Virus record (IMG/VR): IMGVR_UViG_3300028027_000002
Coordinates: 1-64,000 of that record
Direction: 5' to 3' (one strand)
DNA from: a virus
Length of the DNA: 64,000 nucleotides
The notes beneath the pieces are model-generated. The model was not told where the DNA came from and did not search any database. It saw only the letters and a program-made list of their open reading frames with translations. Each line of letters starts with the position of its first letter. Position 1 is the stretch's first letter. Below, in pieces: positions 12,516 to 62,755 of this stretch. A program made the position numbers and the translations under genes.

Positions 12516-12534
12516 TCTAAGATGGTGATATGTA

Positions 12535-14154
12535 ATGGCTGCTGAATATATTGATGGTCCTCTAGATGGCAATGGGCAATACCCAACCCTTATTCCTGGC
12601 TATGAAGATGCGGCCGATATACAAGAGGCTTTAAGACTTTACCATTATGGATCAACAACCATTCCTACAGATAATACCCTTGGAACAGCAAATGGTATAA
12701 ATACAAAGTCTATAGCAGGACACCTACAGTCCTTGTCAAACAGAATTTCAACAGAAGTAACTGATAGGACTAATGCTGACACAAACATTCAAAATCAAAT
12801 TAACAAAATGTCATCAGTCATTACAAAAGGTACAGATTTTACTTTACAGATTGAGGATATATCAAAAACAATTTTATTATCAACAGCAGGAAGCATAAGC
12901 CTAACAGTTCCCGTAAATTCATCTGTAGCAATTCCAGTAGGATCTAGATATATTTTAATTGAAATGGGCTCAGGAATAACAACTTTTACACCTGCAGTAG
13001 GAGTAACAATTAATAGCAAAAATTCACAACTATTTATTGATGAACAGTATGGCCAAGTAACTTTGTTAAAGGTTGCAGAAAATTCTTGGGTTGCTTATGG
13101 AGACATATATGAAGGAGGGCCAGCACCTACACCAGTTGCCCCAACACCTGTTGCTCCTACTCCAACCGCTCCGACACCTACAGCACCTACTCCAACGGCT
13201 CCTACTCCAACCGCTCCGACACCTACAGCACCTACACCAACAGCACCTACACCAACGGCTCCAACACCAACGGCTCCAACACCAACGGCTCCAACACCTG
13301 TTGTAGTTACTTGTGGAGACTGTGAGTCTTATACAACAACTTCTTCAACTTGTAATGGAGAAGATAGTTATGTAGGTATTTATACTGGAACTAGAAGAAC
13401 ATGTAGCGATGGATCTTATCAAATTTGTACAGAGCCAACCTTTACTTCATTTGGTGATTGTATTGCAGTTAATGTTGGTGCTTGCGGAGGTTCTGGTGGA
13501 GCGGGAACATCCTGTACAGCACCAACACCCACCGCTCCTACCCCTGTAGCATTGACATATTGCCCTTCACTTGGTTACAATGTTCCAACAAGTGGTTACC
13601 CAGGAAACTGTCCTGGAGCATCTCCTACACCAACTGCTCCTACACCAACTGCGCCAACACCAACTGCGCCAACACCAACTGCGCCAACACCAACAGCGCC
13701 TACACCAACTGAAGGTGGACCATATTGTAGAAATGAAGTAAGAATAGTTCCTCAGTCACAGTGTATAGCATATCAAGGAAACTTTACAGTTTGCTACTCT
13801 GACCCAGCGTATGTAAATCAAACATCTGCAACCTTTGAAAGTTGTGTTGGCAGCACTCCAACACCTGTAGCGCCTACACCAACCGCTCCAACACCAACAG
13901 CACCTACACCAACCGCTCCAACACCAACAGCACCTACACCAACCACATATACCTGTGCTGAACTTGGCGAACAAGGAACATGGCCTGATTGTTATCCAAT
14001 AGGAACACCAACACCAACACCAACAGCACCTACACCAACAGCACCTACACCAACGGCGCCAACACCTACAGAGCCTACACCAACTGCGCCAACACCTGTT
14101 TCACCAGACTTCTCTCCATTCTTCCCATCCTTTACAGTACCAGGGGCAGTATAA
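12535..14154 (+). CDS. Pro/Thr-repeat (PTAPT)n fibre-like protein with Cys-rich modules and C-terminal [12 protein letters not shown]
   Basis: Five PT-rich blocks; domain shared with the C-terminus of 21154..23262. Confidence 0.8.
13120..14100 (+). repeat. 15-bp coding tandem repeats (PTAPT) in five blocks
   Basis: Seen in DNA and protein; synonymous variation between units. Confidence 0.9.
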
Positions 14155-14180
14155 AGCGGGAGTTGGTGTATAATTAAAGT

Positions 14181-14426
14181 ATGACAAGCAGAATAGAAAA
14201 AATAAAAGAAATAATTGAAAACAACAAAGCCTCTGAAGTAAGTCCTATGGACTTGTTTCGATCCGACACTGTTTGGGCTGATGAGTCTAAGGCCTCTGAA
14301 AGATATGATATTTGCAAATCTTGTCCAGAATTAATAAAATTAACAAAACAATGTAAAAAATGTGGTTGCCTTATGAATAAAAAAACAAAGTTGGAATTAG
14401 CAACTTGTCCTCTAGGCAAGTGGTAA
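14181..14426 (+). CDS. Small Cys-rich metal-binding protein (DUF6171-like)
   Basis: CKSC...CKKCGC...CPLGKW. Confidence 0.75.
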   Translation: MTSRIEKIKEIIENNKASEVSPMDLFRSDTVWADESKASERYDICKSCPELIKLTKQCKKCGCLMNKKTKLELATCPLGKW

Positions 14427-14427
14427 T

Positions 14428-15009
14428 ATGAAGGCTCCATATTTATTAAAAAATGTTTTGCCACCAGCAGAACATAAAGAGTTACAAAACCTAACAATGA
14501 GTCTTTGGTCAACAGATAAAACTACTTTTGATGAAGGATTTGGAAGACATCAATGGGCAGTTTGGGATGATACTCATAAAGAAAACATAGAACCACTCAG
14601 AAGGTTTCATAAAATGTTATTACCACTAGCAAGAGAAGAGTTTGAGTCAGAAACCCTTTTACCATCTTGGTGTCTTATAAGCATTTACGAAGGGGATAAA
14701 GCCAGACTGTGGAAGCACAAAGACGACAATGCTTGTACATATCACATGAACTATACTATTTTCCATAAAACCCCTTGGGATTTTTATGTCGAAGGAGAAA
14801 AGTTTCAGCCAGAAGAAAATGACATGGTTATTTCTTATGGAAACGATCAAGAACACTGGAGAGAAGAATTTCCAAACCCAGAAACAAACCTTGTTGCAAA
14901 TGCTTTTTTCTTTTACGTAGAGCCAGACCATTGGTTTTTTACAGAAGGACCAAATTATCTTTACACAAATATACGTGCAAAGAAAGATGCAGAAACTAGT
15001 GTAATGTAG
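14428..15009 (+). CDS. 2OG-Fe(II) oxygenase-like protein
   Basis: HKD...C, distal HWRE motif. Confidence 0.7.
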   Translation: MKAPYLLKNVLPPAEHKELQNLTMSLWSTDKTTFDEGFGRHQWAVWDDTHKENIEPLRRFHKMLLPLAREEFESETLLPSWCLISIYEGDKARLWKHKDDNACTYHMNYTIFHKTPWDFYVEGEKFQPEENDMVISYGNDQEHWREEFPNPETNLVANAFFFYVEPDHWFFTEGPNYLYTNIRAKKDAETSVM

Positions 15010-15011
15010 TT

Positions 15012-15791
15012 ATGAATAATGGACTGGTCTATTCTATAGTAATTGATGAAAAATATGATATCGAGCAACATAATTTGTACAGACAACTGTCTCACTCATT
15101 GAATACTTTGAGAAAAGTAAATAAAGATATAGGCGTAAAAGTTTACTATTCTTATAAAAAGGGATTGCCAGAAAACCACGACATCTATTTTCCAGAAGAC
15201 CTAAATACAGAGTTCATACCTTTTGAAAATAGCGTAAGCCCATCTTGGCATCCATCATTTTGGAGCGTAGACATAGTTGAGCATAGATGGGTTAATGCTT
15301 TTAAAGGATTGGAAGATTTTAATTTCGACAACATCCTTACTATGGATACAGATACTGAGTTTTTTAGAGATCCAGAAGAACTTTTTAAAAAATATGGGAA
15401 CACAGAATTTCTTTGGAGCAGAGAAGACAACTGTGATGATTTAACAAAAACATTAAGAATATATCCTGCTATAAATGATGGGGTAAGCCTTATTAGCAAA
15501 AATATTTTAAAACATAGATACCCCTGTTTGTTAGCAATGAAACAATATATTAACTATACTTTAGAAAAATATAAAACACTTCTTTCTGAAAAAGATTACC
15601 GTCAGTTGCCATGGGTAATAATTCCGTATTCAGTATATGACTACTTTCATCAAAGAGACATCAATAGATATTTTGATAAAGATGATGTATTAATGCATAT
15701 TGAAGATAGAAAAGACACGCATGTTGTTCGTCATTATTTTTCTTCAAATGCTTCAAAGTTTCTTCCAAAATGGTTAGGTGGTACACAGTAA
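15012..15791 (+). CDS. Glycosyltransferase-like protein (GT-A fold)
   Basis: ILTMDTDTEF DxD motif, INDGV, terminal HY. Confidence 0.6.
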   Translation: MNNGLVYSIVIDEKYDIEQHNLYRQLSHSLNTLRKVNKDIGVKVYYSYKKGLPENHDIYFPEDLNTEFIPFENSVSPSWHPSFWSVDIVEHRWVNAFKGLEDFNFDNILTMDTDTEFFRDPEELFKKYGNTEFLWSREDNCDDLTKTLRIYPAINDGVSLISKNILKHRYPCLLAMKQYINYTLEKYKTLLSEKDYRQLPWVIIPYSVYDYFHQRDINRYFDKDDVLMHIEDRKDTHVVRHYFSSNASKFLPKWLGGTQ

Positions 15792-16460
15792 ATGGCAACT
15801 ATAGGCATACTTCCAGCAAGTGGAAGAGCCTCAAGAATTGGTGGTATTCCAAAATTTTGTTTACCAATTTCAGATGAAAGATCATTGCTACAATGGCATG
15901 TAGAACAAATGCTTGAGGTTTGCGATGAGATTAGAGTATCTACAAAAGCCGAATGGGTTCCAATTATTAAAAACATGGATATGAATATTAAACTTATTGT
16001 TAAAGAACCATCTACAATGTCGGACGCAATTAATTTTATGGTGGGAGAATATAATGATACTGTTATTGTTGGAATGCCAGACACATATGTTTTAGATGCT
16101 CCAGGAAACATATATAAGGAAATGCTTAAAGAAACAAATGCTGACTTGGTTTTAGGGGTTTGGGAGTGCAACGATGAACTAAAAGGTCGTGTAGGACAGG
16201 TACTGTTATCTGAAGATAAAGTTATTGCTTCTGAAGACAAATCAGATAACTGTGATTATCTGGATATGTGGGGCATTATGATGTTTAGAAAGAATATGAT
16301 TAGATATTTAGACTCAAGTTTAGAACACCCTGGAAAACAAATAAAAGACTGGATATCAGAGGGCAAAAATATAAGGGCAGTAAGACCAGGTGGCAAGTAT
16401 ATGGATATTGGAACTTTAAAGGGTCTTAAGAATTTATATAAAGAAATGGATTTAAAATAA
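15792..16460 (+). CDS. Sugar-phosphate nucleotidyltransferase (RmlA/GalU-like fold)
   Basis: GILPASGRASRIGGIPKFCLP; YMDIGT. Confidence 0.85.
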   Translation: MATIGILPASGRASRIGGIPKFCLPISDERSLLQWHVEQMLEVCDEIRVSTKAEWVPIIKNMDMNIKLIVKEPSTMSDAINFMVGEYNDTVIVGMPDTYVLDAPGNIYKEMLKETNADLVLGVWECNDELKGRVGQVLLSEDKVIASEDKSDNCDYLDMWGIMMFRKNMIRYLDSSLEHPGKQIKDWISEGKNIRAVRPGGKYMDIGTLKGLKNLYKEMDLK

Positions 16461-16463
16461 AAA

Positions 16464-16491
16464 TACCCCCAAGGATTTCTCCAAGGGGGTA
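16464..16491. terminator. Bidirectional intrinsic terminator
   Basis: TACCCCC/GGGGGTA hairpin between convergent genes. Confidence 0.65.
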
Positions 16492-16504
16492 ATTTATTTA
16501 TAAA

Positions 16505-17068
16505 CTACTTAGGAAATTTGCTCATCCAAAATTTGGTTCTTGGAGTGATACCCTTCCATGAGGACCAATCTTCTCCACCATTTGTCATGTAGTATGCAAT
16601 CTCTGCATTCTTGACGGGATTGAATAGTTCAGCGTTAGAGTCAAGATCAAACTTGGTTCTACGATCAGGACCAAGAGCATCAATCATGTTTATTTGGAAC
16701 ATTCCATAAGATGAGTCACCAGTCTTGTGGTTGCCATTAAAAGCCAATGGACGGCCATTAGACTCCTTTTTAGCCACCGCCCAAGCAACAACAAGGTCTT
16801 TGCCCTTGAAGCCTACTAGGGAAAGCAGTTCCTTTAGTTCTAGATCAGTCAGAGAAACCTTGTTCTCAAAACTCTCTAGTTTTTTTGCCTTAGAAACCAA
16901 AAAAACCTCTTTCGAGGTGGTTTTCGATGTCTGAGCCTGTTCCAGGCTAAGGTTGTTCTTTGTATCAAGATCTGAAATAGCATTAGCAGAGTTAGACATA
17001 ACCGTTACTAATGCTACGATACTGAGTGTGCTAATGATCTCTTTGTTTCTTTCGATAAATTTAATCAT
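16505..17068 (-). CDS. Lysozyme-like/SLT transglycosylase (Rpf-like) with N-terminal signal anchor
   Basis: AKKESNG catalytic Glu, YGMFQIN, WSSW; AAGGAGG SD places start at 17068. Confidence 0.8.
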   Translation of the reverse strand: MIKFIERNKEIISTLSIVALVTVMSNSANAISDLDTKNNLSLEQAQTSKTTSKEVFLVSKAKKLESFENKVSLTDLELKELLSLVGFKGKDLVVAWAVAKKESNGRPLAFNGNHKTGDSSYGMFQINMIDALGPDRRTKFDLDSNAELFNPVKNAEIAYYMTNGGEDWSSWKGITPRTKFWMSKFPK

Positions 17069-17115
17069 AGTTTCCTCCTTAGAAAACAATAACACCCTGG
17101 TAGGTGTCTATACCA

Positions 17116-17145
17116 AGTATAACATAATTTTGAGTCAAAAGTCAA
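17116..17145 (-). promoter_or_regulatory. SigA-type promoter TTGACT-18-TATACT for the transglycosylase gene
   Basis: Hexamers plus TG extension; back-to-back with TATAAT at 17155. Confidence 0.6.
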
Positions 17146-17169
17146 ATCTGGGTGTATAATTATTTTATT

Positions 17170-17694
17170 ATGAGCACATACGATTTTTCAGCCACGGGAA
17201 TTAAATATCCTCTTGAGACATCCCCAGTAAATGTACATGGAGACTTCAAGAAATTGGCAGAATCTCTTGACGCAATCCTTCCAGCATATGGCGTATCATA
17301 TTTTCAAATTGATGTTCACAACAATAGTGGTGGACCAATAGGTGCTGGAGTACCAGTTTATGCAACAAATGGCAAAGTAAATGACAAAGTTACAATAGCA
17401 AAAGCAGTTCCATCAACAACATCTCCAATACTTGGTTTGTTGAAAAATCTTAAAAATAATGGAGAGGATGGAGTTGTTGTTGTTGCTGGAGTGATGGAGG
17501 GGCTAAACACTTCTAGTTTTCTTGCAGGACAAACATTATATGTTGGTCCATCTGGAGGTTTAACAAATGTTAGACCAGAAGGAGGCTCTGCAGCAGTTGG
17601 AATTTGTGCAGTTGCAGATAATGTTAATGGAATAGTTATAGTAGAGGCAAAAGGAAACGGTACCTGGGGAGCACTCAGAGACGGTTTGTCGTGA
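17170..17694 (+). CDS. Putative virion structural (decoration/cement-like) protein
   Basis: ORF; G/V-rich beta motifs; start after TATAAT. Confidence 0.65.
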   Translation: MSTYDFSATGIKYPLETSPVNVHGDFKKLAESLDAILPAYGVSYFQIDVHNNSGGPIGAGVPVYATNGKVNDKVTIAKAVPSTTSPILGLLKNLKNNGEDGVVVVAGVMEGLNTSSFLAGQTLYVGPSGGLTNVRPEGGSAAVGICAVADNVNGIVIVEAKGNGTWGALRDGLS

Positions 17695-17706
17695 TATAAT
17701 AAACAA

Positions 17707-18123
17707 ATGGCAACTTTAAGAGGATCTCAATCACTATACGATATTGGTAATAAACCACCTACAGTTATTTGGACTGTTGTTCGTGGAGATACTTCTGGTT
17801 TTAAGGTTTATGTAACAGACGATGCTAAAGAACCTTTGATCCTAAAGGGTGAAGGATCTGAATGGGATATTGCTATGAAGATTAAAAGACCCAACAATAC
17901 TTCTGATCTTGGAGTAATTACAGATGATGCAACAGTTGTTATGTCTTTATATCCCGTCGCAGATGAAGATGATCTTGTCGGAGAGTTTACAGTTTGGCTT
18001 ACAGCAGAAGAATCAGTGCAACTTGAAACAGGAGACATCTTTGATATTCAGGTATCAGACCCAACAAGAGTTTGGACAGTTGCTCAGGGCAGCATGAGAA
18101 TTCTTGAAGATGTAACAGATTAA
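17707..18123 (+). CDS. Virion structural protein, BppU-N-like
   Basis: VVRGDT motif; leaderless. Confidence 0.65.
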   Translation: MATLRGSQSLYDIGNKPPTVIWTVVRGDTSGFKVYVTDDAKEPLILKGEGSEWDIAMKIKRPNNTSDLGVITDDATVVMSLYPVADEDDLVGEFTVWLTAEESVQLETGDIFDIQVSDPTRVWTVAQGSMRILEDVTD

Positions 18124-18347
18124 TGGCAACAGCAGTAATCCTTGATGACCTGCAAAACAAAACAGAACGAATCTTTCCAATAGATTATGCAGTAGTACAA
18201 TTAGAAGACTTTACAAGAAAAACAGTTATAACTGAGGTTTTACCCTTTAGAGTTAAGTTCACAGCGATTCAAATTCAGGCTATTGGTTTGGGAAATACCC
18301 CAGCAATTCCTTTGCAGGTTATTGGTTATAGCAACTATATTCTCTAA
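18123..18347 (+). CDS. Hypothetical structural protein
   Basis: ORF, TAATG coupling. Confidence 0.7.
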   Translation: MATAVILDDLQNKTERIFPIDYAVVQLEDFTRKTVITEVLPFRVKFTAIQIQAIGLGNTPAIPLQVIGYSNYIL

Positions 18348-18380
18348 TTATCTTATTTAAATGGGTGATATAATTACGAC

Positions 18381-18827
18381 ATGGCTAAAATATCAATTGC
18401 ATCAGTTAAAAGTCTATTCCAAACTGGAGATAGACCTACTCAAGAAAATTATGTAGATTTAATCGATACCCTATCTGCTCAGTCAACCGAGTTAGGATCA
18501 GCGGGTAACAATGAAAACACAATCACTGGCATTGAGAACGTAACTGTTATTGATAACTTTGATGCTACAGTTTGGCGTATGGTGAAGTATATTATTTCAA
18601 TATCAAAGACTTCAGCAGGTGACAATAAGTTCTACGCAACTGAAATGACAATTCTTGTTGACGGTGCAAATGTATCTGTCAGCGAGTATGGAACAATCGA
18701 CAATGATGGGAATATTGGCACCATTAATGTCTCTCGCACTGGAAATACCGTGGCTATATCAGTCACTCCAGATTCTGCGATCAAGCCAGTCACAGTACGA
18801 TATGCTCGTATTGGACTTAAGGCATAA
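18381..18827 (+). CDS. Putative tail-fibre-associated protein
   Basis: FQTGDRPT N-terminus; C-terminal domain resembles that of 18844..20610 (SEYG/TEYA). Confidence 0.65.
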   Translation: MAKISIASVKSLFQTGDRPTQENYVDLIDTLSAQSTELGSAGNNENTITGIENVTVIDNFDATVWRMVKYIISISKTSAGDNKFYATEMTILVDGANVSVSEYGTIDNDGNIGTINVSRTGNTVAISVTPDSAIKPVTVRYARIGLKA

Positions 18828-18843
18828 CTAAGGAGATATAAAA

Positions 18844-20610
18844 ATGGCAACAAACAATAAAGACTTTAAAGTAAAGCATGGGTTAGTCGTTGAAGGACTA
18901 CAAGGTACTATCAACGGAGAAACAATCCTTACAGAAAACGCAGGAGATCAATACATCCTTGACCTCATTAGCGGAGAAACACTAGTCAAGTCAGTATCAA
19001 ATGAATTTGATGTTTCAGCAGGTGGAGAACTTTCACTTGATCGTACAGTAGTAGATGCTTACTATGATGCAGCAGGATCTGCAGGGGATGTAGCATCAGA
19101 TCTTACAGATCACGAAAATGCTACAGCAGCACACGGTGTAACAGGTGCGGTAGTTGGAACAACTAATACACAGACACTAACTAACAAGACAATTTCTTAT
19201 GCAGACAACACAATCACAGTTCAGGTTGCAAATGTTTCAGATCTAACAGCATCTGCAGCAGAACTTAATACTCTTGATGGAATTACTGCAAGCACATCAG
19301 AACTTAACCTTCTTGATGGCGTAACAGCAACAACAGCAGAATTAAACATTCTTGATGGTGTGACTGCTACTGCAGTAGAGTTAAACATTCTTGATGGAGC
19401 GACTGTTTCAACAGCAGAACTCAATCTTCTTGATGGAGTAACTGCAACAACTGCTGAATTGAACTATGTGGACGGAGTAACATCTGGCATTCAGGGTCAA
19501 CTTGACGATAAGGCACCACTTGCATCACCAGCACTTACTGGTGTACCAACTGCCCCAACAGCAACAGCAGGAACAAACACTACACAGGTAGCAACAACAG
19601 CATTCGTAGGAACAGCAGTAGCAAACCTTGTTAATGGTGCTCCAGACCTTCTTAATACTCTAGATGAGTTGGCTTTGGCACTTCAGGACAATCCAGATAT
19701 TATTGGAGATCTTCAGGATATTGCAGCAGGAAAGCAAGATACGCTAACTGCAGGAGCAAATATTGACATTACAGGAGCAACAATTTCTGTAACTGGTCTA
19801 GATGCAGCAGATATTTCAGATTTCTCATCTGCAGCACTTGCAGCAACTGCAGCAGCATACGATGTTGCAGGAGCAGCAGCGCAGGCTCTTGAAGATGCAG
19901 AAGCATACGCAGATGGACTTACAACATCTGACATTGCAGAAGGCACAAACCTTTACTTCACAAACCAGCGAGCAATTGCCGCTGTTGGTGGAACAATTGA
20001 AGATCAGATTAATCTTCTTGATACAGATGACATTGAAGAGGGTGCAATAAACCTTTACTTCTCAGACTCTCGTGCAAAGGATTCAGCAGGAGATCTTCTT
20101 GCAGGAGCAACAAAGGAAAACATTCAAATCAGTTACATTGGTGGAGTTCTAAGCATCTCTGCAGAAAACGGTGTAGCAGACTCTGACACTGATGACCTTG
20201 ATGAAGGTACAACAAATAAGTACTTCACAGATGTTCGTGCAGTAGATGCTCTTGAAGCAGTCGTTCCAAACTTTACAGCAGTTGAGGTTAATTCGGTTGC
20301 TAAGCAAGTTGCTTCGACTATGTCAGCAGCAAGCGCAGGCACACATGTTGGACACGCATTTGCTAAGGCAGATTACCGTTCAGCAGAGTTCCTTGTAAAG
20401 GTTGCATACGGTGCAAACACTGAAATTTCAAAGGTCCTTTTGACACTTGACTCTTCAGACAACATTTCAATTACTGAATACGCAATGGTTGGAACTAATA
20501 CTTCTACATCAACAATTTCAGCAAATGTTAATGGAGCAAATGTACAACTTCTAGTAACAACCGCTAACAATACCTCAGAGGTAACTGTTGTCGGAACATT
20601 ACTTAAGTAA
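18844..20610 (+). CDS. Tail fibre protein
   Basis: 6x 13-aa TAELNxLDGV repeats, APLASPALTGVPTAPT, LNTLDELA, EGTNLYFT repeats. Confidence 0.75.
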   Translation: MATNNKDFKVKHGLVVEGLQGTINGETILTENAGDQYILDLISGETLVKSVSNEFDVSAGGELSLDRTVVDAYYDAAGSAGDVASDLTDHENATAAHGVTGAVVGTTNTQTLTNKTISYADNTITVQVANVSDLTASAAELNTLDGITASTSELNLLDGVTATTAELNILDGVTATAVELNILDGATVSTAELNLLDGVTATTAELNYVDGVTSGIQGQLDDKAPLASPALTGVPTAPTATAGTNTTQVATTAFVGTAVANLVNGAPDLLNTLDELALALQDNPDIIGDLQDIAAGKQDTLTAGANIDITGATISVTGLDAADISDFSSAALAATAAAYDVAGAAAQALEDAEAYADGLTTSDIAEGTNLYFTNQRAIAAVGGTIEDQINLLDTDDIEEGAINLYFSDSRAKDSAGDLLAGATKENIQISYIGGVLSISAENGVADSDTDDLDEGTTNKYFTDVRAVDALEAVVPNFTAVEVNSVAKQVASTMSAASAGTHVGHAFAKADYRSAEFLVKVAYGANTEISKVLLTLDSSDNISITEYAMVGTNTSTSTISANVNGANVQLLVTTANNTSEVTVVGTLLK

Positions 20611-20645
20611 TAAAAAATAAAAATAGTTGGAAGAAGGAGTAGTAA

Positions 20646-21095
20646 ATGGCAACAGTCGATAAAGACTTCAAGGTCAAGAATGGATTAGTCGTAGCAAACG
20701 GCGGTACATTCGGAGATGCAGTAACAGTAGGAGCACCAACTCTTGCTAACCATGCAACAACCAAGGAGTATGTCGATAGTCGCTCAATGGCCGTAGGCTC
20801 TACTGCTCCTTCTTCACCAACTAACGGAACACAGTGGTTAGACACTATAACAAATAGAGTCAACTTCTATTATGAAGGTTCTTGGTATACCCAAGCAACT
20901 ATTGATGATACGAACAACTTACCACAGCACATTCACGATACCGCAATTGATGGAACTGGTTTCATAGTATCTCAGTTCTATGAAGGTGGATCATTCAACA
21001 GCCCATTGGGTGTAGGTTTGGATGCTGGAGGACCAGGTACAGAAACTTGGACTGTAGTATTCGATGGCGGTAGTGTAGTAGATAACTTCAATTAA
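20646..21095 (+). CDS. Tail-fibre-associated protein
   Basis: KDFKVKNGL N-terminus shared with 18844; HATTKEYVD. Confidence 0.65.
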   Translation: MATVDKDFKVKNGLVVANGGTFGDAVTVGAPTLANHATTKEYVDSRSMAVGSTAPSSPTNGTQWLDTITNRVNFYYEGSWYTQATIDDTNNLPQHIHDTAIDGTGFIVSQFYEGGSFNSPLGVGLDAGGPGTETWTVVFDGGSVVDNFN

Positions 21096-21153
21096 AAACT
21101 GATGTTATAATAAGATAAGTTAATGGGCAGCCCCCATAAGGAGAAATAAAAAT

Positions 21154-23262
21154 ATGGCAACAAGAATGCAACAGCGCAGAGGAACTGCAGCACAATGGAC
21201 GGCTGCAAACCCAGTTTTAGCAGCAGGTGAAATCGGATTTGAAACCGACACAAACAAATTTAAGATTGGTAATGGAGCAACCGCATGGTCGGCACTTGAT
21301 TACTTTGCTAACTCATCAGCACTAACAGCGCTCCTTAATGGAGCACCTGGCACACTAGATACTCTTAATGAACTAGCAGCAGCAATTAACGATGATCCAA
21401 ACTTCTTCTCAAGCGTTGCAGACCAGATTGCAGATGCAATCGCTGGCGCTGAAGTAGATCAGGCAGCCCTTGCTGGCGCAGGAATCGACTGGAATGCTGG
21501 AACTAACGCATTTGATATAGATTCAACAGTTGCCACAAAGACATATGCAGATAACGCTGTAACTGTCCACAACCAGGATTCAACTGGTGTTCATGGAATT
21601 ACTGACACAGCAGCCCTTGTAACATTGTCAGGTACACAGCAATTAGCAAACAAGACATTGATGAGCCCACTTATCAATACTCCTTCAGGCTTAACAAAAA
21701 CAGATGTTGGCCTTGCAAACGTAGATAACACTTCAGATGCCAGCAAGCCAGTCTCAAGCGCCGCACAGACAGCCCTTGACTTAAAGGCACCAATTGCTGA
21801 CCCAACATTTACTGGTACAGTATCTGGCATTACAAAGGCTATGGTAGGACTTGGACAGGTAGATAACATCTCAGATTTAAATAAGCCAATTTCAACTCTT
21901 GCACAGGCAGCACTTGATGCAAAGGCTCCACTAGCAAACCCTGAATTTACAGGTGTTGTATATGGTATTACAAAGGCAATGGTTGGATTAGATCAGGCAA
22001 ACAATACAGCAGATCTAGACAAGCCAGTATCAAATGCTACACAGGTAGCACTAGATAACAAACTTGCACTATCTGGAGGAACTCTTGTTGGATATTTGAC
22101 AACACACGCAAATCCAACAGACTCTATGCATGTAGCAAATAAGAGATATGTAGATGCTATTGCAGAAGGACTTCACATTCACGCAGCAGTTGTCGCAGCA
22201 ACAACTGCAAATGTCACACTTGCCTCAGCAGTAGATAATGGTAAGACACTTGATGGTGTTACATTGGCAACTGGAAATCGTATTTTAGTTAAGAACCAAA
22301 CAACTGAATCAGAAAATGGTATTTACATCGTAAGTGCTTCTGGTGCACCAACTAGAGCAGCCGACTTTAACTCTGCAGCAGAAATTCATGGTGGAGACTT
22401 TGTTTTCGTAACAGGTGGAACTCAGTACAATAACACTGGCTGGGTACAAACAGAAACTGTAACAACAGTTGGTACAGATGCTATAGGATTCACACAGTTC
22501 TCAGGCGCAGGAACATACTTAGCAGGAAATGGTTTGTCTCTAACTGGATCAACATTCTCTGCTGATCTAACAGTTCTTGCACCAAAGGACAGTCCAGCAT
22601 TTACAGGAACAGTTACAGGTGTTACAAAGGCAATGGTTGGATTACAGAATGCTGACAATACATCTGATGCAGCAAAGCCAGTTTCAACTGCTACTCAGAC
22701 AGCACTTGACCTAAAGGCTAACCTAAATGCACCAACATTTACTGGCACTGTTGCTGGTATTTCAAAGAGCATGGTTGGCTTGGGCAATGTTGATAACACA
22801 ACAGATGCAGGAAAGCCAGTTTCAACTGCTACTCAAACAGCACTTGATCTAAAGGCCCCAATTGCAAACCCAACATTTACTGGAACAGTAACAGTCGGTG
22901 CACCTGGAGTAGCATTTTCAGACGGAACACAGACAAAGGAAGGCGTTCCATCTAGAACAACAATTATACAAAGAACAGACTCTTACACACTGGCTTCACT
23001 GACAGAAAGAGATTCTTTGATAGAAATAAATAAGGCAACAGCATCAACCTTGACTATTCCAACTAATGCAACAGTTGCATGGCCAATTGGAACATCAATT
23101 GATATCCTTCAGACTGGAGCAGGACAGGTTACAATTGCTGGCGCAGCAGGAGTAACTGTAAATGCAACACCAGGATTAAAACTACGCACACAGTGGTCAT
23201 CAGCCTCGCTTTTGAAGCGAGGAACTGATTCATGGGTAGTCGTAGGCGATCTAACAGCATAA
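21154..23262 (+). CDS. Tail fibre with Mtd/hyaluronidase-type N-terminal domain
   Basis: QQRRGTAAQW..NPVLAAGEIGFETDT; 5x VGLxNVDNTSDxxKPVS repeats. Confidence 0.8.
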   Translation: MATRMQQRRGTAAQWTAANPVLAAGEIGFETDTNKFKIGNGATAWSALDYFANSSALTALLNGAPGTLDTLNELAAAINDDPNFFSSVADQIADAIAGAEVDQAALAGAGIDWNAGTNAFDIDSTVATKTYADNAVTVHNQDSTGVHGITDTAALVTLSGTQQLANKTLMSPLINTPSGLTKTDVGLANVDNTSDASKPVSSAAQTALDLKAPIADPTFTGTVSGITKAMVGLGQVDNISDLNKPISTLAQAALDAKAPLANPEFTGVVYGITKAMVGLDQANNTADLDKPVSNATQVALDNKLALSGGTLVGYLTTHANPTDSMHVANKRYVDAIAEGLHIHAAVVAATTANVTLASAVDNGKTLDGVTLATGNRILVKNQTTESENGIYIVSASGAPTRAADFNSAAEIHGGDFVFVTGGTQYNNTGWVQTETVTTVGTDAIGFTQFSGAGTYLAGNGLSLTGSTFSADLTVLAPKDSPAFTGTVTGVTKAMVGLQNADNTSDAAKPVSTATQTALDLKANLNAPTFTGTVAGISKSMVGLGNVDNTTDAGKPVSTATQTALDLKAPIANPTFTGTVTVGAPGVAFSDGTQTKEGVPSRTTIIQRTDSYTLASLTERDSLIEINKATASTLTIPTNATVAWPIGTSIDILQTGAGQVTIAGAAGVTVNATPGLKLRTQWSSASLLKRGTDSWVVVGDLTA

Positions 23263-23292
23263 AAAATAAATAAGTAAATTGGAGAAATATAA

Positions 23293-24150
23293 ATGGCAAA
23301 GAAAGAATTAGGATCGAAGTCTTTACAACAAAACGACTTCCTAGAACCAAAGGCACCAGTTAGCGTTGTAGCGACAGATGTTGGAACAAATAGAGCGTTC
23401 TCAAGCGCAGCAGCATCTGTTTCATTTTCTTTGCCAGGAGACTCTCCAGCAGCGACATCATATACAGTAACTTCTTCACCAGGAGGGTTTACTGGTACAG
23501 GCTCAGGATCACCTATAACAGTTGCAGGATTGAGTCCTGCCACATCTTATACATTTACAGTAACAGCAACTAATGCTTCAGGAACTTCTCCTGCATCAGC
23601 AGCATCATCTGCAGTAACAGTAACAACTGTTCCAAACTCTGTCTCTGTTACAGCAACAACAGGTGTTAACCAAGATACAATTTCCTGGCTCGCACCAGCA
23701 ACGGGTGGAAAGGCAATCATTGATTACTCTTGGGTATCTTCTGATGGAAAGTCTGGAACAACAGCATCAACATCCGTTAATGTTGTACAAGAAGGAAGCA
23801 CCGCTCAGACATATACAGTAACAGTAAGAAATGCAAATGGTTCTTCTCTTGTATCTGCACCATCAAACAGCGTTACTACTACACCACCATTCTTCCCACC
23901 ATCATTCCCATTCTTCCCACCAGCATTTTGTCCGTTCTTCCCGAACTTCTGTCCGTTCTTCCCGAACTTCTGTCCAACGTTCTGTCCGTTCTTCCCGAAC
24001 TTCTGTCCATCATTCTGTCCGTTCTTCCCGAACTTCTGTCCAGCATTTTGTCCAGCATTTTGTCCAGCATTCTGTCCAGCATTCTGTCCAGCATTCTGTC
24101 CATCATTCGCTCCATTCTTCCCATCCTTTACGGTACCAGGAGCAGTATAA
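23293..24150 (+). CDS. Fibronectin type III protein with C-terminal Pro/Phe/Cys repeat tail ending [12 protein letters not shown]
   Basis: GLSPATSYTFTVTATNASG (FN3) and a second FN3-like repeat; 12x FCP. Confidence 0.85.
   Translation: MAKKELGSKSLQQNDFLEPKAPVSVVATDVGTNRAFSSAAASVSFSLPGDSPAATSYTVTSSPGGFTGTGSGSPITVAGLSPATSYTFTVTATNASGTSPASAASSAVTVTTVPNSVSVTATTGVNQDTISWLAPATGGKAIIDYSWVSSDGKSGTTASTSVNVVQEGSTAQTYTVTVRNANGSSLVSAPSNSVTTTPPFFPPSFPFFPPAFCPFFPNFCPFFPNFCPTFCPFFPNFCPSFCPFFPNFCPAFCPAFCPAFCPAFCPAFCPSFAPFFPSFTVPGAV
23884..24147 (+). repeat. Coding repeats PFFPNFC / PAFC (21- and 12-bp units)
   Basis: Seen directly in DNA and protein. Confidence 0.9.
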
Positions 24151-24207
24151 TAAAATAATAAATAGGGTATACCACGCTTATTAACTAGGTGTGGTATACT
24201 TTATTTT

Positions 24208-24903
24208 ATGGAAAAAAGATATGAGTGGTATGACGCTCCAAGACTAGAAAATACAAAAACTAGGCTTGAAAAGCGTACAATTGCAAACGATGTTGAAGTT
24301 TTAAACCTAGAGTATGGAATCAATCTATATAGAAATGCTATACCTAAAGATCAATGCTTAAGCATAATAAATAGACTTGAAGATGCTTCAGAAAAAAACT
24401 CACCCCATCTTTCTTGGAGGGGCGCACAGATTAATGACAAAGAGGATTCTGACCATGTTAGAAATTGCCTAGATATTAAATACAAAAGAGAACATCTTGG
24501 AAAATTCTTACCATTTGATCAGGACATGTTTGATATACATAAAGAAGTAGAAGATTATTTGGATAATTGTTTAAGAGATTACGAATCCTTATGGCACTTT
24601 CAAATGGCATACAAAGAAGCATTTAACTTCGTAAAGTATCTGCCTGGAAAATATTTTAAACTTCATGGCGACCACGGACCATACTATACGTGTACAGTCT
24701 CTGCCGTTATTTATTTAAACGATGACTATACTGGAGGAGAAATAGAGTTTCCAAGACAAGGCCTTAAAATAAAGCCAGAAGCAGGAGACATTGTTGTTTT
24801 TCCATCAAACTTTGTTTACGAGCATGCATCTTGTGAAATTTTTGAGGGAACAAAATATTCAGTAGTAATAATGACAGATTACAACGACTTACACCACAAG
24901 TAA
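24208..24903 (+). CDS. 2OG-Fe(II) oxygenase, prolyl-4-hydroxylase-like
   Basis: HGD...YLNDDYTGGEIEF...H...GTKYS. Confidence 0.9.
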   Translation: MEKRYEWYDAPRLENTKTRLEKRTIANDVEVLNLEYGINLYRNAIPKDQCLSIINRLEDASEKNSPHLSWRGAQINDKEDSDHVRNCLDIKYKREHLGKFLPFDQDMFDIHKEVEDYLDNCLRDYESLWHFQMAYKEAFNFVKYLPGKYFKLHGDHGPYYTCTVSAVIYLNDDYTGGEIEFPRQGLKIKPEAGDIVVFPSNFVYEHASCEIFEGTKYSVVIMTDYNDLHHK

Positions 24904-24940
24904 AAATAGTGATAGAATATATATAGAAAGAAGGTAAAAA

Positions 24941-25639
24941 ATGGATAAGGTAATTAATACAAGTTCTGATGAAACAAAAGACTATGAAACACCAACGTGG
25001 TCTTCATTTGAAAATTTGGGAAGTGGAATTTTTGTTTACAGAGATGTTCTTCCAAAAGAACTAGATATAATCAAAAGGCTTGAAGACAATCTTAGCGACG
25101 ACCATCCTAGATATAAGTGGACGGAAGCATTTGTTGGATATTTTCAGAGCATGCCAGAGTACAGAGACTGTGTTGATTTTAAGTTTAAGAAATCAGATAT
25201 CGCACTAGACACAAGTGAGACATCCCTAAATCTTCAAGCATTATGGCAAGACTGCTACGACAGACAAAAAGCAGCGGTAAACCATTATCAGAAAATGTTT
25301 AATCTTGGAGAACTAAGATATTGGGAGGCAATGAACTTTGTTAAGTACAATAAGGGTCAGCATTTCCAATACCACCATGATCACGGATTTTCTTACAACT
25401 GTACAGTATCTTTAGTTGCTTATCCTAATGATGACTATACTGGAGGAGAGTTGTCCTTTCAGCATCAAGGATTAATGATAACTCCGAAGGCTGGAGATCT
25501 ATATATTTTCCCATCAACATATATGTACAGCCACAGAGCAATGCCAGTTCATTCTGGAACAAAATACTCTATTGTCACAATGCTAGACTATAGCGCTAAG
25601 TTTCATACACCAGAAATGTATAGAGAAACTGGCGACTAG
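24941..25639 (+). CDS. 2OG-Fe(II) oxygenase, prolyl-4-hydroxylase-like
   Basis: HHD...YPNDDYTGGEL...H...GTKYS. Confidence 0.9.
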   Translation: MDKVINTSSDETKDYETPTWSSFENLGSGIFVYRDVLPKELDIIKRLEDNLSDDHPRYKWTEAFVGYFQSMPEYRDCVDFKFKKSDIALDTSETSLNLQALWQDCYDRQKAAVNHYQKMFNLGELRYWEAMNFVKYNKGQHFQYHHDHGFSYNCTVSLVAYPNDDYTGGELSFQHQGLMITPKAGDLYIFPSTYMYSHRAMPVHSGTKYSIVTMLDYSAKFHTPEMYRETGD

Positions 25640-25640
25640 T

Positions 25641-26348
25641 TTGAAGATTGACGTTTATAGAAAAAGAGATTTTGATTCAGATTTCTATCCTTTGCCACCA
25701 AAAAGAGACTGGATGGATGACACATTTGATAAACACGCATATAGATGCTTTCCAGTAAATATTGCAAATACATTAGGGTGGACATTCTCTTTTCCAAAAG
25801 ACATATCTTTTATTTGGGACGGAAACTCAACATCAGAAGATGGACACGTAAAGGTTCTTTCTGGAGAAGAATATGTCTTTACTAACAGGGCAAATGCAAC
25901 AATAAGTTTTAACAGTGGTTTAACTTTTATGACAGAGGAAAATGTTAGTTTACTTATGATGCCTGTTCCAAATCAGTTTATTGATGGTGTTCAGGGTTTT
26001 ACAACAATGATAAGTACTTCTGTACTAACAACTCCAATTCCATATGCTTGGAAAATAACAAAGGCTAATGAAGTAATAACTATTCCAGCAAATACGCCTA
26101 TTGTTTCAATAATTCCAATAAGTTTAACAGATGTCCAAAACACTGAAGTTCACCTTTATGTAGAAAATTTTCCATATGAGCATTTTAAAAAAATCTCTGA
26201 TTATGCAAATGCTTCTCATGAAATATCTAAAAAACAATCCTGGACAAACTTCTATAGGGATGCAGTAGACCATGAAGGAAATCAACAGGGTAACCATGAA
26301 CTAAAGAGTTTAAAGTTAAAGATTACAGATCATAGAGATAGCAATTAG
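25641..26348 (+). CDS. DUF6065-like protein
   Basis: RDWMD...HAYRCFP..IAN..GW signature. Confidence 0.65.
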   Translation: MKIDVYRKRDFDSDFYPLPPKRDWMDDTFDKHAYRCFPVNIANTLGWTFSFPKDISFIWDGNSTSEDGHVKVLSGEEYVFTNRANATISFNSGLTFMTEENVSLLMMPVPNQFIDGVQGFTTMISTSVLTTPIPYAWKITKANEVITIPANTPIVSIIPISLTDVQNTEVHLYVENFPYEHFKKISDYANASHEISKKQSWTNFYRDAVDHEGNQQGNHELKSLKLKITDHRDSN

Positions 26349-27079
26349 TGAATACAGAAAATATTAAGTTTATAGCAAATAAAACATGGCTATCAAAAGA
26401 AAGTAACTCTGCTCCAAAACCAATAATAAGAACAATTCCAGACTGGTTTAGAAAAGCAGACAGGTTTGCTAAAAGACCAGACGGAGAATTCTGGATAGGT
26501 CCAGATAAAGGTAAAGTTCCTACGTGGAAAGCGTGTCCTGCAATTTTTGACATTATGGGTACTGGATATTCGTTAAATCTGCCATGTGATATTGAGTTTT
26601 ATATGACTGAGTCTGGACTTAAGCACAAAGTTTTAAGCAATAAATATCAAGACTTTATACAGGTAAGAGATGAGATGCCACAGTTTGAGCATCCACGTGG
26701 ATATTACAAAAATCATTTCGCATTGACTCCAGACTGGCAAATAAAAACTCCTTCAGGATATAGTGTTTTGTATACTCAGCCATTTAATAGATTTGAATTA
26801 CCATTTTTACTAACTACGGGAATTGTAGATAACGATAAAGTCCACATGCCTGGATCTTTTCCATTTTTTATTGTTGAGGGATTTGAGGGTATTATTCCAG
26901 CAGGAACTCCATATGCACAGTTAATTCCATTTAAAAGAGAAAACTGGACATCTGAAATTATTGAGCAGGATGATGCCTCAGAGTTAATGAGACAGGCAAT
27001 GGACAATGCAAGTATTTATAGAAAGCCAGATGGTGGAATATATAAAAATGAAATATGGGAACAAAGAAAATATGAATAA
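26348..27079 (+). CDS. DUF6065-related / dUTPase-like-fold protein
   Basis: PDWF...KACPAIFD..GY; TGIVDND; IPAGTPYAQLIPFKRE. Confidence 0.55.
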   Translation: MNTENIKFIANKTWLSKESNSAPKPIIRTIPDWFRKADRFAKRPDGEFWIGPDKGKVPTWKACPAIFDIMGTGYSLNLPCDIEFYMTESGLKHKVLSNKYQDFIQVRDEMPQFEHPRGYYKNHFALTPDWQIKTPSGYSVLYTQPFNRFELPFLLTTGIVDNDKVHMPGSFPFFIVEGFEGIIPAGTPYAQLIPFKRENWTSEIIEQDDASELMRQAMDNASIYRKPDGGIYKNEIWEQRKYE

Positions 27080-27099
27080 AAAAATGGTACAATGTTAAT

Positions 27100-27774
27100 A
27101 TGGACAACGTAGAATATTCAAATAACTTCGTTACTGATAGAGTATCAATAACACCCTCTGGTTATTTTGGTAAAGATAAGTCAAACATCCAATCTAGAGA
27201 AAATTTTATTAGTAAAGAAGATTTAAAGTTTTTAGAAAATGCTGCAAAGAATATAAAAATTTGGGATGTCACAGAAACCCACTATGACGAGAATGGAACA
27301 ATGATTTATGATTCATCTTACTGGGCAGATCGTGTTGCTACATCAAGATCTCTAAACCTTAACGATGAAAAAATTAATCCAGTTATTGAAAAACTACAAC
27401 AAGCCCTTAAAAAAGAGGTAGATTTATTTTTTGGTGTCGATGCTTGGCCAACAAGCCCAGCAATAGTTAGATGGCTTCCAGGGCAGTTTCAACAACCACA
27501 TGCAGACAAAGAGTTGCATGAAGGAGAAAATGCAGGAAAGCCAAACGACTTCCCATATTATGATATCGCAGGATTGTTTTATTTGAACGACGATTATGAA
27601 GGTGGAGAGTTATATTTTCCAAATCAAAAAATACAGTTCAAGCCTAAATCAGGTGCAGCATATTTTTTCCCAGGGGACCTAAATTATATACATGGAGTAA
27701 CCCAGATCACAGAAGGCATAAGATATGTTGTTCCATTTTTCTTTACTATTTTGTCTCATAAGGAGGGCCAATAA
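27100..27774 (+). CDS. 2OG-Fe(II) oxygenase, prolyl-4-hydroxylase-like
   Basis: HAD...YLNDDYEGGELYF...HGV...GIRY. Confidence 0.9.
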   Translation: MDNVEYSNNFVTDRVSITPSGYFGKDKSNIQSRENFISKEDLKFLENAAKNIKIWDVTETHYDENGTMIYDSSYWADRVATSRSLNLNDEKINPVIEKLQQALKKEVDLFFGVDAWPTSPAIVRWLPGQFQQPHADKELHEGENAGKPNDFPYYDIAGLFYLNDDYEGGELYFPNQKIQFKPKSGAAYFFPGDLNYIHGVTQITEGIRYVVPFFFTILSHKEGQ

Positions 27775-28580
27775 TGCAAGAAGATATAGTTTTAAATTTT
27801 AACAAAATAGAAGATAAAATTTTTGTTTACAAAAATCCATTTAACGATTTAGAAAAAATAATTTCATCCCTTGATGATAGAAAGTGGGATCAGTGGTACA
27901 CCTTTGGAAATATTCATCACATACCCCTTCCTGGGAGTGTCGAGTCAGATTCTTTCCCAAGCACCGTTGATTGGGAATCTTACACCAACAAGATTCAGGA
28001 TAAGGACAAAGACCTAGACATCGTTAATGTTTTTTATAATACTACCAAGCACTACATTGAAGAAATCAACCTGACTTCAAATAACTGGATGCTTGGAAAA
28101 ATAGATATAGCAAAGTACCCAGATGCAAAAAATATAACTGATCCAAATGCAAAGCCATTTTTTAATGAAATTGGCAAAAATTACACAATGTCTTTTCACA
28201 CTGACTATCCACAAGAAAGTACAAACTCTCCAGGAGCAAAACAAATAGTTACCTGCAATATGTACCTAAATGATAATTATGAAGGAGGGGAGATAGAGTT
28301 TAAAGTCTTTTCAGAAGATGGCTCTTATGAGAGAATAACTTATAAGCCAGAGGCAGGAGATGTTGTTATATTTCCATCTACTCCACCCTATTGGCATGGA
28401 GTAAGAGAAACAACAAATGGAGATAAGTATTTTGTTAGATCATTTTGGTATGTAATTGATGGACCATCAGAAGAGTGGATTGAAAATGAAAAGAAGTATG
28501 GCAAAGAGGTTTGGCATGAGATGGAAGAAACAAGAAAACAAGAAGAAAGAATTTCTGGGTTGTACATAAGAAATGGTTAA
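27774..28580 (+). CDS. 2OG-Fe(II) oxygenase, prolyl-4-hydroxylase-like
   Basis: HTD...YLNDNYEGGEIEF...HGV...GDKY. Confidence 0.9.
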   Translation: MQEDIVLNFNKIEDKIFVYKNPFNDLEKIISSLDDRKWDQWYTFGNIHHIPLPGSVESDSFPSTVDWESYTNKIQDKDKDLDIVNVFYNTTKHYIEEINLTSNNWMLGKIDIAKYPDAKNITDPNAKPFFNEIGKNYTMSFHTDYPQESTNSPGAKQIVTCNMYLNDNYEGGEIEFKVFSEDGSYERITYKPEAGDVVIFPSTPPYWHGVRETTNGDKYFVRSFWYVIDGPSEEWIENEKKYGKEVWHEMEETRKQEERISGLYIRNG

Positions 28581-29352
28581 CAAGTCAAACTTTAATTATT
28601 TAAAAGATGAAAAAAATAACAAAGGAGTTTTGGGAATAACTCATAACCGTATTGTAGAAATTCCTAACTTCGTTGATGAAAAAACAGCAAGCAGTATGAT
28701 AGCCTATGTTGAGTCAAAAGGAGAAAACTGGGGAGACATAGCGTTTTATGGTTCACTAGGCATGGGTCTTGCTCCAAACGATCCAGGACTTGCTGAGCAT
28801 GGATTAAGTCTTACATTTTTTGATGATCTTAGAGATAAATTTAAGGAAGCCGTTGAGTTAGTTTTTGAAAGAAAGGTAAGACCTAATACCTCTCATGCCC
28901 AAAAATGGGATGTAGGTGGATATGCTTCACCACATTCGGACAACTCTGATTTTGATGGAAACCCTAATGCTTTTGAAATAAACAAGTATGTTGGAATTTT
29001 GTATTTAAACAACGACTATGAGGGTGGAGAGTTATTCTTTGTTGAGCCATCAGACAAGAAATCAGAAGGATCTGATATGTCTGGAAATGCAGTTCCAGTT
29101 TGGAAAGATCCATATCTTTCTTTTAAGCCAAATGCTTATTCTTATTATGTGTTTCCAGGAGGAGTAGAAAATATCCATGGAGTAACTGAAATACTTGCTG
29201 GAACAAGATACACAATGGTTTCTTTTTGGGACTACGAAGAAATAGAATATAGTCAAGAAACCATTGATAAATGGAAAGAAGAAGAAAAAGAAATTAGAAG
29301 ATTACAGTCTATTCAAAAAGAAGAGTGGACAAAAGGAAATAAATACGCATAG
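28573..29352 (+). CDS. 2OG-Fe(II) oxygenase, prolyl-4-hydroxylase-like
   Basis: HSD...YLNNDYEGGELFF...HGV...GTRY. Confidence 0.9.
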   Translation: MVNKSNFNYLKDEKNNKGVLGITHNRIVEIPNFVDEKTASSMIAYVESKGENWGDIAFYGSLGMGLAPNDPGLAEHGLSLTFFDDLRDKFKEAVELVFERKVRPNTSHAQKWDVGGYASPHSDNSDFDGNPNAFEINKYVGILYLNNDYEGGELFFVEPSDKKSEGSDMSGNAVPVWKDPYLSFKPNAYSYYVFPGGVENIHGVTEILAGTRYTMVSFWDYEEIEYSQETIDKWKEEEKEIRRLQSIQKEEWTKGNKYA

Positions 29353-62740: not shown

Positions 62741-62755
62741 TGGTATAATTATAGT

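Follow-up and report, generated by a model that had tools for sequence, protein, structure and literature searches.

Why should two otherwise unrelated proteins of one phage, encoded 10 kb apart, end in the same 14 residues? The question is raised by a stretch of 64,000 nucleotides (the window), positions 1 to 64,000 of the IMG/VR virus record IMGVR_UViG_3300028027_000002, in which the genes for the proteins P0001 (539 aa, 12535..14154) and P0002 (285 aa, 23293..24150), both on the plus strand, share this end, here called the tag. We lean, if only slightly, towards the reading that the tag is one of a set of interchangeable tip modules carried by two appendages, and that the enzymes encoded next to the two genes track aromatic-proline repeats.

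The tag and its two carriers

The two copies of the tag, each of 14 residues plus the stop codon, are placed at 14110..14154 (end of P0001) and at 24106..24150 (end of P0002), on the plus strand. A sequence-only reading of the window had reported that 14116-14154 and 24112-24150 agree at 37 of 39 nt, that both differences are synonymous (ACA/ACG, GGG/GGA) and that the carriers are otherwise unrelated, and all of this was confirmed. The repeat finder (family D15) carried the match 6 nt further in the 5' direction, to 42 of 45 nt, adding the residues F-S/A; this S/A is the sole replacement between the copies, and the differences within the 12-residue core are synonymous. The similarity stops exactly at the stop codon, which is TAA in both, and the DNA 3' of the stops is unrelated. 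When the 39-nt pattern was searched with up to 3 mismatches only the two copies were obtained (0 expected, 100 shuffles), and a degenerate back-translated pattern retrieved just these two in the whole genome of 111,870 bp. The tag consists of a last aromatic-proline unit (F-x-P-F-F-P-x-F, the first eight residues) and a cap, T-V-P-G-A-V. The copies of the window are closer to each other than the tag of P0001 is to that of its orthologue in locus L018.

Two other explanations were considered and rejected. The tag does not resemble a sorting signal of the LPXTG or PEP-CTERM type, being without a hydrophobic helix and without basic residues and ending six residues past the last Phe, and an assembly artefact was ruled out by the presence of the tag on independent contigs.

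In P0001 a head (aa 1-192) is followed by PTAPT-type Pro/Thr linkers between four small Cys modules (aa 194-525, with 16 Cys in the protein) and then by the tag (aa 526-539). Among the PHROGs, the 192-aa head has its matches in C-terminal domains of minor tail and tail fibre families; it is about 30% identical to minor tail proteins of Gordonia phages, and its residues 89-191 are also about 30% identical to the C-terminal domain of a 702-aa tail fibre (Mtd_N; 21154..23262, plus strand). A total of 101 homologues of this head were found; relatives of P0001 with such a minor-tail-like head are referred to as the P1 family. P0002, whose relatives form the P2 family, is composed of an N-terminal peptide and two FN3 domains (aa 1-197), of about 75 residues of PFFP/FCP aromatic-proline repeats (aa 198-271) that lead straight into the tag, and of the tag itself (aa 272-285). 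Its N-terminal peptide is conserved, and the P2 family comprises more than 3600 homologues. Across 80 loci the same gene order is kept: g496, a collagen-like gene, g302, g199, P1, a variable islet, g180 and onwards to the 702-aa fibre, P2 and the enzyme cluster. The P1 and P2 proteins are probably parts of the virion tail, as the minor tail and tail fibre PHROGs, the Gordonia minor tail proteins and the synteny among fibre genes suggest.

The tail of P0002 contains 12 Phe-Cys-Pro units (window 23920-24105). Cys-Pro followed by a hydrophobic residue is the pattern of the heme-regulatory motif. The units may bind metal or heme, or may become cross-linked by disulfides after lysis.

End modules shared by the two families

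In both families the N-terminal parts are conserved and the C-terminal module is often exchanged. The ends belong to one shared repertoire, which includes the tag, a disulfide-type loop containing ...TYCPSLG[YR]... (the CPSLG loop), several Cys knots, Hint domains, among them those of the BIL (bacterial intein-like) type, and short Gly/Ala-rich hydrophobic tails; other shared ends are of the types ...PYFSxNWGG... and ...PRWGSDYRLKD.... The tag, the CPSLG loop, the Hint domains, the Cys knots and the WG-type end were each found on P1 as well as on P2 proteins. The CPSLG loop also occurs inside P0001 as one bead on a string (a 22-residue module at 13552..13617, plus strand), the same module being the C-terminal end of P1 and P2 proteins elsewhere. 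A tree of 50 P1 heads requires 16 changes of end type in all, and genome G005 has the same neighbour genes as the window and a different P1 end. What is found here is the pattern of mosaic modules: a conserved proximal part with an exchanged distal module, and the same module on unrelated carriers.

Moreover, the two ends of one genome tend to agree. Among 16 genomes in which both genes were readable, agreement over the last 30 residues was seen in 7, where random pairing would give 1.8 (permutation, p 5e-5, an optimistic value for related genomes), and in 6 of 15 when a near-duplicate is left out (p 2e-4); with two matches among five further genomes the total is 9 of 21. The matching ends are of several types (the tag, the CPSLG loop, two Hint subtypes and a CxxCxRxYCWxxCPxCC knot) and thus represent separate events. 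Between the shared Hint modules of the G023 pair 91 codons are identical, with 66 synonymous and 29 non-synonymous differences, and for the G006 pair the corresponding counts are 70, 64 and 55. To judge from these counts, the copies are old and under purifying selection, not fresh conversions.

The Hint assignment concerns end domains of about 160 aa in relatives of the window proteins, with an invariant first Cys, a C-terminal HN and a predicted Hint fold (AlphaFold2, mean predicted local distance difference test (pLDDT) 94). Foldseek placed this fold with BIL2, a Clostridium thermocellum BIL domain, Hedgehog and inteins at a template modelling (TM) score of about 0.7, and Pfam calls it only below its cut-off. 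Such domains are located at 10781-11260 of L154, 793-1272 (minus strand) of L101 and 7590-8069 of L066, and in many P1 and P2 proteins (e.g. P0032, P0144). They come directly after a Phe-rich repeat, and P1 and P2 of one genome carry the same subtype. If the Hint/BIL domain cleaves itself off, the mature end would be an aromatic-proline peptide much like the tag of the window.

Another shared end, ...SPYF[ST]PRWGSDYRLKD.IEEY..., about 35 aa long, was found on the P1 proteins P0135, P0182, P0189, P0194, P0196 and P0201 and, in the P2 family, on P0023 and in L172. Its start, SPYF..RWGSDYRLKD, resembles the Ser-Asp...Lys cleavage motif of the S74 intramolecular chaperone; Pfam gave no hit on this module, and the likeness to S74 is a guess.

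The tag itself has a wide distribution in the P1 family. Its variants fit P-[FY]-F-P-[SY]-F-[TK]-x-[PGE]-[GN]-[AG]-x and end proteins whose heads are 98, 68, 67, 56, 46, 45 and 44% identical to that of the window. A search with the P1 head found it on P0124, P0125, P0129 and P0154 (head identity 99, 98, 67 and 44%), and further tag-ended P1 proteins are encoded in the IMG/VR loci L016, L018, L027-30, L058 and L086. In all tagged P1 proteins the tag is preceded by a D/S-F-[SP]-P or Y/F-F-P unit. Placed on the P1-head tree, the 6 tagged rows imply 5 changes, of which at least 4 fall on branches with good support. Among the best 120 of the more than 3600 P2 homologues only the closest (P0003, 81%) is tagged, ending in PFFPYFTIPGAV. 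The same S-to-Y and V-to-I variant, PFFPYFTIPGAV, ends the P1 protein P0124 and the P2 protein P0003/L006. Scans with a DNA pattern of the tag in IMG/VR and the JGI metagenomes, collections that exclude the contigs of P0124, P0129 and P0154, returned five IMG/VR contigs and one metagenome contig, all with P2 orthologues of close relatives, which end in ...SFTVPGAV, ...SFTIPGAV or ...YFTIPGAV.

The sequence-only reading had named absence of the sharing in relatives as the mark of a one-off gene conversion, and the relatives answered in both directions. In G003 and G005 the tag is on P2 only, and the P1 orthologue has VTPP repeats and a Cys-rich end without the tag. In L086/G033 (head 45% identical) the P1 protein ends in ...PFFPSFTDPNAV and the P2 protein in ...PFFPYFTIGGAV, two copies that differ at 4 residues yet keep the motif. 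In addition, L016 (P1, ...TVPGAQ) and L003 (P2, ...TVPGAV) were both obtained from one metagenome and would lie side by side in the gene order of the window; they probably belong to one phage, in which case the tag is shared there too. With a tag that recurs and is under selection, the case for a one-off conversion is not cleanly made.

Enzyme sets and aromatic-proline repeats

The cluster downstream of P2 (oxA, g243, oxB, DUF6065, oxC, oxD, oxE) is present with every end module and is missing where the tail is of the FGAFG, FSPFG or YxFTP type. The comparison covered 46 non-redundant loci whose downstream sequence extends for at least 6 kb: all 25 loci with seven or more aromatic-proline motifs encode DUF6065 and at least four oxygenases, and none of the 21 with fewer motifs does (Fisher 1e-13; the numbers of motifs and of oxygenases correlate with a Spearman coefficient of 0.86). 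This co-occurrence supports a link between the oxygenase cluster and the P2 repeat tail, and hydroxylation of peptidyl proline in the neighbouring repeat proteins is the probable activity. In L177 (IMGVR_UViG_3300031857_000758) the P2 protein falls in the FFPP clade but has repeats of its own, Y-x-F-T-P; the whole oxygenase/DUF6065 cluster is lost, and DUF6171, g243 and the ribonucleotide reductase gene are kept. Among single loci, this one shows the joint change of repeat and cluster most cleanly.

The islet after P1 holds oxygenases whichever end the P1 protein has, be it the tag, Hint, a Cys knot or the CPSLG loop, and the tag-bearing P1 of L086 has an islet without an oxygenase. The sequence-only reading had proposed a survey of tag relatives and their gene neighbourhoods; the paired tags it looked for do occur (L086/G033), but the enzymes do not follow the tag. 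In 38 non-redundant loci, an islet oxygenase is missing after four of the five P1 genes whose tails contain no more than 10% Pro and present after 30 of the 33 with Pro-richer tails (Spearman 0.39, p 0.017, not corrected for phylogeny). DUF6171 was found after P1 in 5 of 5 tag-type, 4 of 4 Hint-type and 6 of 29 other non-redundant loci, counts that are likewise not corrected for phylogeny, and also after some Cys-knot-ended P2 genes.

The perfect co-occurrence of the oxygenase/DUF6065 cluster with aromatic-proline repeats is also what would be expected if the tag were a substrate and not a signal, the end of P0001 being hydroxylated by the oxygenases that act on the P0002 repeats and both proteins receiving the same chemical finish. 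The tag opens with one aromatic-proline unit of eight residues, and the tags of P1 always come after another unit, both of which suit this explanation. Nevertheless we consider it rather improbable, as the evidence is purely correlative and comes from three independent transitions, the tag offers one unit against 7-40 in the P2 tails, and some P1 proteins with long FFPP stretches have no special enzyme content in their own islet.

Each tagged gene of the window is directly upstream of an oxygenase-containing set, which the sequence-only reading had seen correctly for both P0001 and P0002. After P0001, on the plus strand, the first gene (14181..14426) encodes a small Cys-rich DUF6171 protein of 81 aa (E 3.5e-5, below the Pfam cut-off; phrog_13558, E 2.6e-15). 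The second (14428..15009) encodes a 193-aa 2-oxoglutarate (2OG)-Fe(II) oxygenase that was missed by Pfam and identified by its fold (pLDDT 86.7; Foldseek matches to PHD2/AlkB, E about 5e-7) and in which H97, D99, H143 and R145 are invariant, with the HxD...H triad in place. The third gene (15012..15791) is, as a lead only, a probable nucleotide-sugar glycosyltransferase with a DTD motif, having Atlas neighbours with Glyco_transf_8/Nucleotid_trans, and a Pfam scan of its product gave no hit; the fourth (15792..16460) encodes a MobA-like nucleotidyltransferase (NTP_transf_3, E 1.3e-6, 29.2 bits with a cut-off of 27).

The cluster after P0002 has seven genes (24208..29352, plus strand). Five encode PF13640 oxygenases above the Pfam cut-off (24208-24903, 24941-25639, 27100-27774, 27774-28580 and 28573-29352), one a DUF6065 protein (25641-26348) and one a product of 243 aa with no assigned family (26348-27079). 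The 2OG-Fe(II) class is marked by a double-stranded beta-helix fold with the HxD...H iron triad; the five proteins are assigned to it by their Pfam hits, and the 193-aa protein by its fold and its invariant H97, D99 and H143. The whole genome (G000) contains ten PF13640 oxygenase genes and the one at 14428-15009 recognised by fold only; with at least 11 oxygenases in the genome, an oxygenase as a neighbour is less special than it appears. Five oxygenases are outside both sets, one of them at 5172-5420 between two paralogous genes (window 4878-5426).

A promoter-like word, GGTGTATAATTAAAGT, is placed at 14165..14183 (plus strand) directly before the ATG of the DUF6171 gene and is kept after the P1-family stop in relatives; its repeat family (D14) has copies at 14165, 17151 and 62740. 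These and a fourth site are extended -10-like words (TGnTATAAT/TATACT), GGTGTATAATTA at 14165-14183, 17151-17176 and 62740-62765 and TGGTATACT at 24190-24207, located 7-9 nt before an ATG and conserved after the P1 and P2 stops in relatives. Being so near to the ATG, they look like leaderless starts. P0002 and the first oxygenase are separated by a strong hairpin (24159..24207, plus strand; about -25 kcal/mol) that has a U-rich tail and contains TGGTATACT in its 3' arm, 9 nt before the oxygenase ATG. This hairpin after P2 is conserved in L003, L004 and L086, and in L004 and L086 it is kept with base changes on both arms (GGTATACCAC/GTGGTATAC vs GGTATGCCA../..TGGTATAC). With a promoter-like word of its own for each set, and the hairpin after P0002, the enzyme sets look like separate transcription units. 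The words were identified by eye as conserved words and not by scan: a sigma-70 promoter scan was at chance level (56 found, 50 expected), and a terminator scan was weakly above it (17 found, 10.6 expected, standard deviation 2.9).

Explanations and known systems

In the explanation that we favour, conserved N-termini would fix the P1 and P2 proteins to the tail, the Pro-rich stretch would serve as an extended tether and the end module would be the free distal tip. The N-terminal anchoring is suggested by the N-terminal parts, which with their invariant columns are the most conserved. The 3' end of one gene would have been copied onto the other by recombination within the genome, aided by repeat DNA, and the copied end would have been retained by the need of both appendages to contact one common partner, most likely a part of the host surface. 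The cluster of prolyl 4-hydroxylase (P4H)-type oxygenases would probably hydroxylate the aromatic-proline repeats; the tag, which contains one such unit, may be modified too.

Several points weigh against this explanation. The end by which the proteins attach to the virion is read from sequence conservation, and 14 residues are few for a binding module. The sharing is not universal (9 of 21 genomes), and the close relatives G003 and G005 have the tag on P2 only. The identity of 42 of 45 nt cannot date the copying in the window, because codon bias is strong and the sample small. The association of repeats and cluster comes down to three independent transitions on the FN3 tree, all concordant and too few for a sign test. 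The genomes of the matching test are related, which makes the permutation p optimistic, although the matches span different module types.

Short aromatic-proline peptides can dock fibres, as does the FNPVYPY tail of the adenovirus fibre in the penton base. The tag could in the same way be a docking peptide that fixes both C-termini into one virion site and leaves the N-terminal domains distal and host-binding. In other fibres the homologues of the P1 head are C-terminal domains and hence probably distal, FN3/Ig-like domains are typically outward-facing decorations, and Hint-type ends could in principle ligate the C-terminus covalently (PMC9163320). This arrangement is nevertheless unlikely: the end modules turn over fast among close relatives while the structural genes around them are conserved, which is unexpected for an anchor in a conserved site; in both families conservation is highest at the N-terminus, as in fibres anchored by that end; and the Cys knots and CPSLG loops, the latter also found internally, look like independent small modules.

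We give still less weight to the idea that the tag is a neutral by-product, without a function of its own, of gene conversion between two repeat-rich 3' ends. Both genes do end in repetitive Pro-rich DNA, which favours recombination, and the copies of the window are more alike than the P0001 tag and its orthologue in L018. Against this, the identity ends at the stop codon and the differences in the core are synonymous, the tag persists on heads 44-68% identical, the diverged copies of L086 have kept the motif, and in other shared end modules synonymous differences are many and non-synonymous ones few.

The proposal of the sequence-only reading, a follower or recognition peptide like those of ribosomally synthesised and post-translationally modified peptides (RiPPs) that recruits the adjacent tailoring enzymes to both substrates, could draw on the position of both tagged genes directly upstream of sets that include 2OG oxygenases, on the conservation of the tag at the protein level over wide divergence and on the presence of DUF6171 after all five non-redundant tag-type P1 genes. 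It is very doubtful all the same. Tagless genes that end in Hint domains, Cys knots, short G/A tails or the CPSLG loop are followed by the same enzyme sets, in L086 the islet of a tagged P1 gene is without an oxygenase, and DUF6171 is found as well after P1 genes ending in Hint and P2 genes ending in Cys knots. The sets have promoter-like starts of their own, and a hairpin precedes the one after P0002. The carriers are structural proteins of 285 and 539 aa with folded domains and not short precursor peptides, and among the cluster proteins that were scanned no Pfam hit pointed to a RiPP recognition element. What is shared with RiPP leader and follower systems is a repetitive core with a conserved terminal peptide beside tailoring enzymes; here enzymes occur without the tag, the tag occurs without enzymes, and the carriers are structural.

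The favoured explanation, that of interchangeable tips on two appendages, has its closest parallel in the exchange of tail-fibre and receptor-binding modules between phages, for example among the tail fibre genes of P2, T-even and lambdoid phages. As in those mosaic fibres, a conserved proximal part goes with distal C-terminal modules that are exchanged horizontally, and one module is found on unrelated carriers. Here, in contrast, the unit can be as small as 14 residues and stands at the end of low-complexity Pro-rich tethers, and within a genome the two different appendage genes tend to have a module in common, a matching that we did not find described in the literature.

The nearest precedent for the proposed repeat hydroxylation is the prolyl 4-hydroxylase of Chlorella virus PBCV-1, which is described as acting on virus-encoded Pro-rich repeats (PMC3634087). 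In both cases the virus encodes P4H-type 2OG oxygenases (PF13640) and Pro-rich repeat proteins. PBCV-1 is a giant algal virus with PAPK repeats, whereas here a phage has Phe/Tyr-Pro repeats (FFPP, FCP) and five to nine divergent oxygenases with DUF6065 in one cluster, and the link is one of co-occurrence in genomes. Mycobacteriophages are also reported to modify their own virion proteins by glycosylation with phage-encoded enzymes (Freeman et al. 2023, as cited in PMC11600133). Common to both are an actinobacterial host, a probable one here, and, in the window, a glycosyltransferase-like gene (the lead mentioned above) and a nucleotidyltransferase beside a Pro/Thr-rich tail protein, but here oxygenases dominate and the targets would be appendage tethers, not capsid or tail tube. 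With the autoprocessing Hint domains of BIL and Hedgehog proteins (PMC4031507, PMC9163320; PDB 6y75, 2lwy, 1at0) the relatives share the 160-aa Hint-fold domain in the position of the tag, with its invariant first Cys and C-terminal H-N. The window proteins are without such a domain, their tag being a plain peptide end, and self-cleavage in the relatives is putative.

The source of the window, a 111,870-bp virus record with direct terminal repeats that is rated complete, is an uncultured freshwater phage of a group whose isolated relatives infect actinobacteria. Its portal is 48% identical to the portals of Streptomyces phages of about 130 kb, a likeness that fits a phage of actinobacteria. 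Neither megablast of window positions 12000-25000 nor tblastn of P0002 gave a match to isolated phages, and literature searches returned no description of these repeat proteins.

Aquatic phages very commonly encode 2OG oxygenases, and to our knowledge few of the substrates of these enzymes have been identified. The link of an oxygenase cluster to a specific type of virion-protein repeat provides a directly testable substrate. Tentatively, and as a possibility that we rate well below the tip-module reading, the freshwater phages of this group may possess a hitherto undescribed finishing system for virion appendages, in which five to nine divergent P4H-type oxygenases and DUF6065 hydroxylate Phe/Tyr-Pro tethers, in the manner of extensins or mussel glue proteins, and the tethers of two different appendages are closed by matched, interchangeable end modules. 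If so, what the tips adhere to or are ligated to would be determined by the end modules, which range from the tag of 14 residues to Hint caps that process themselves. The matching of end modules between two appendage genes may be a rule of phage tail evolution of which we found no earlier description, and it would have consequences for the coordination of host range or of virion assembly. Abundant uncultured actinobacteria of fresh water are the probable hosts, a group in which phage adsorption is little known.

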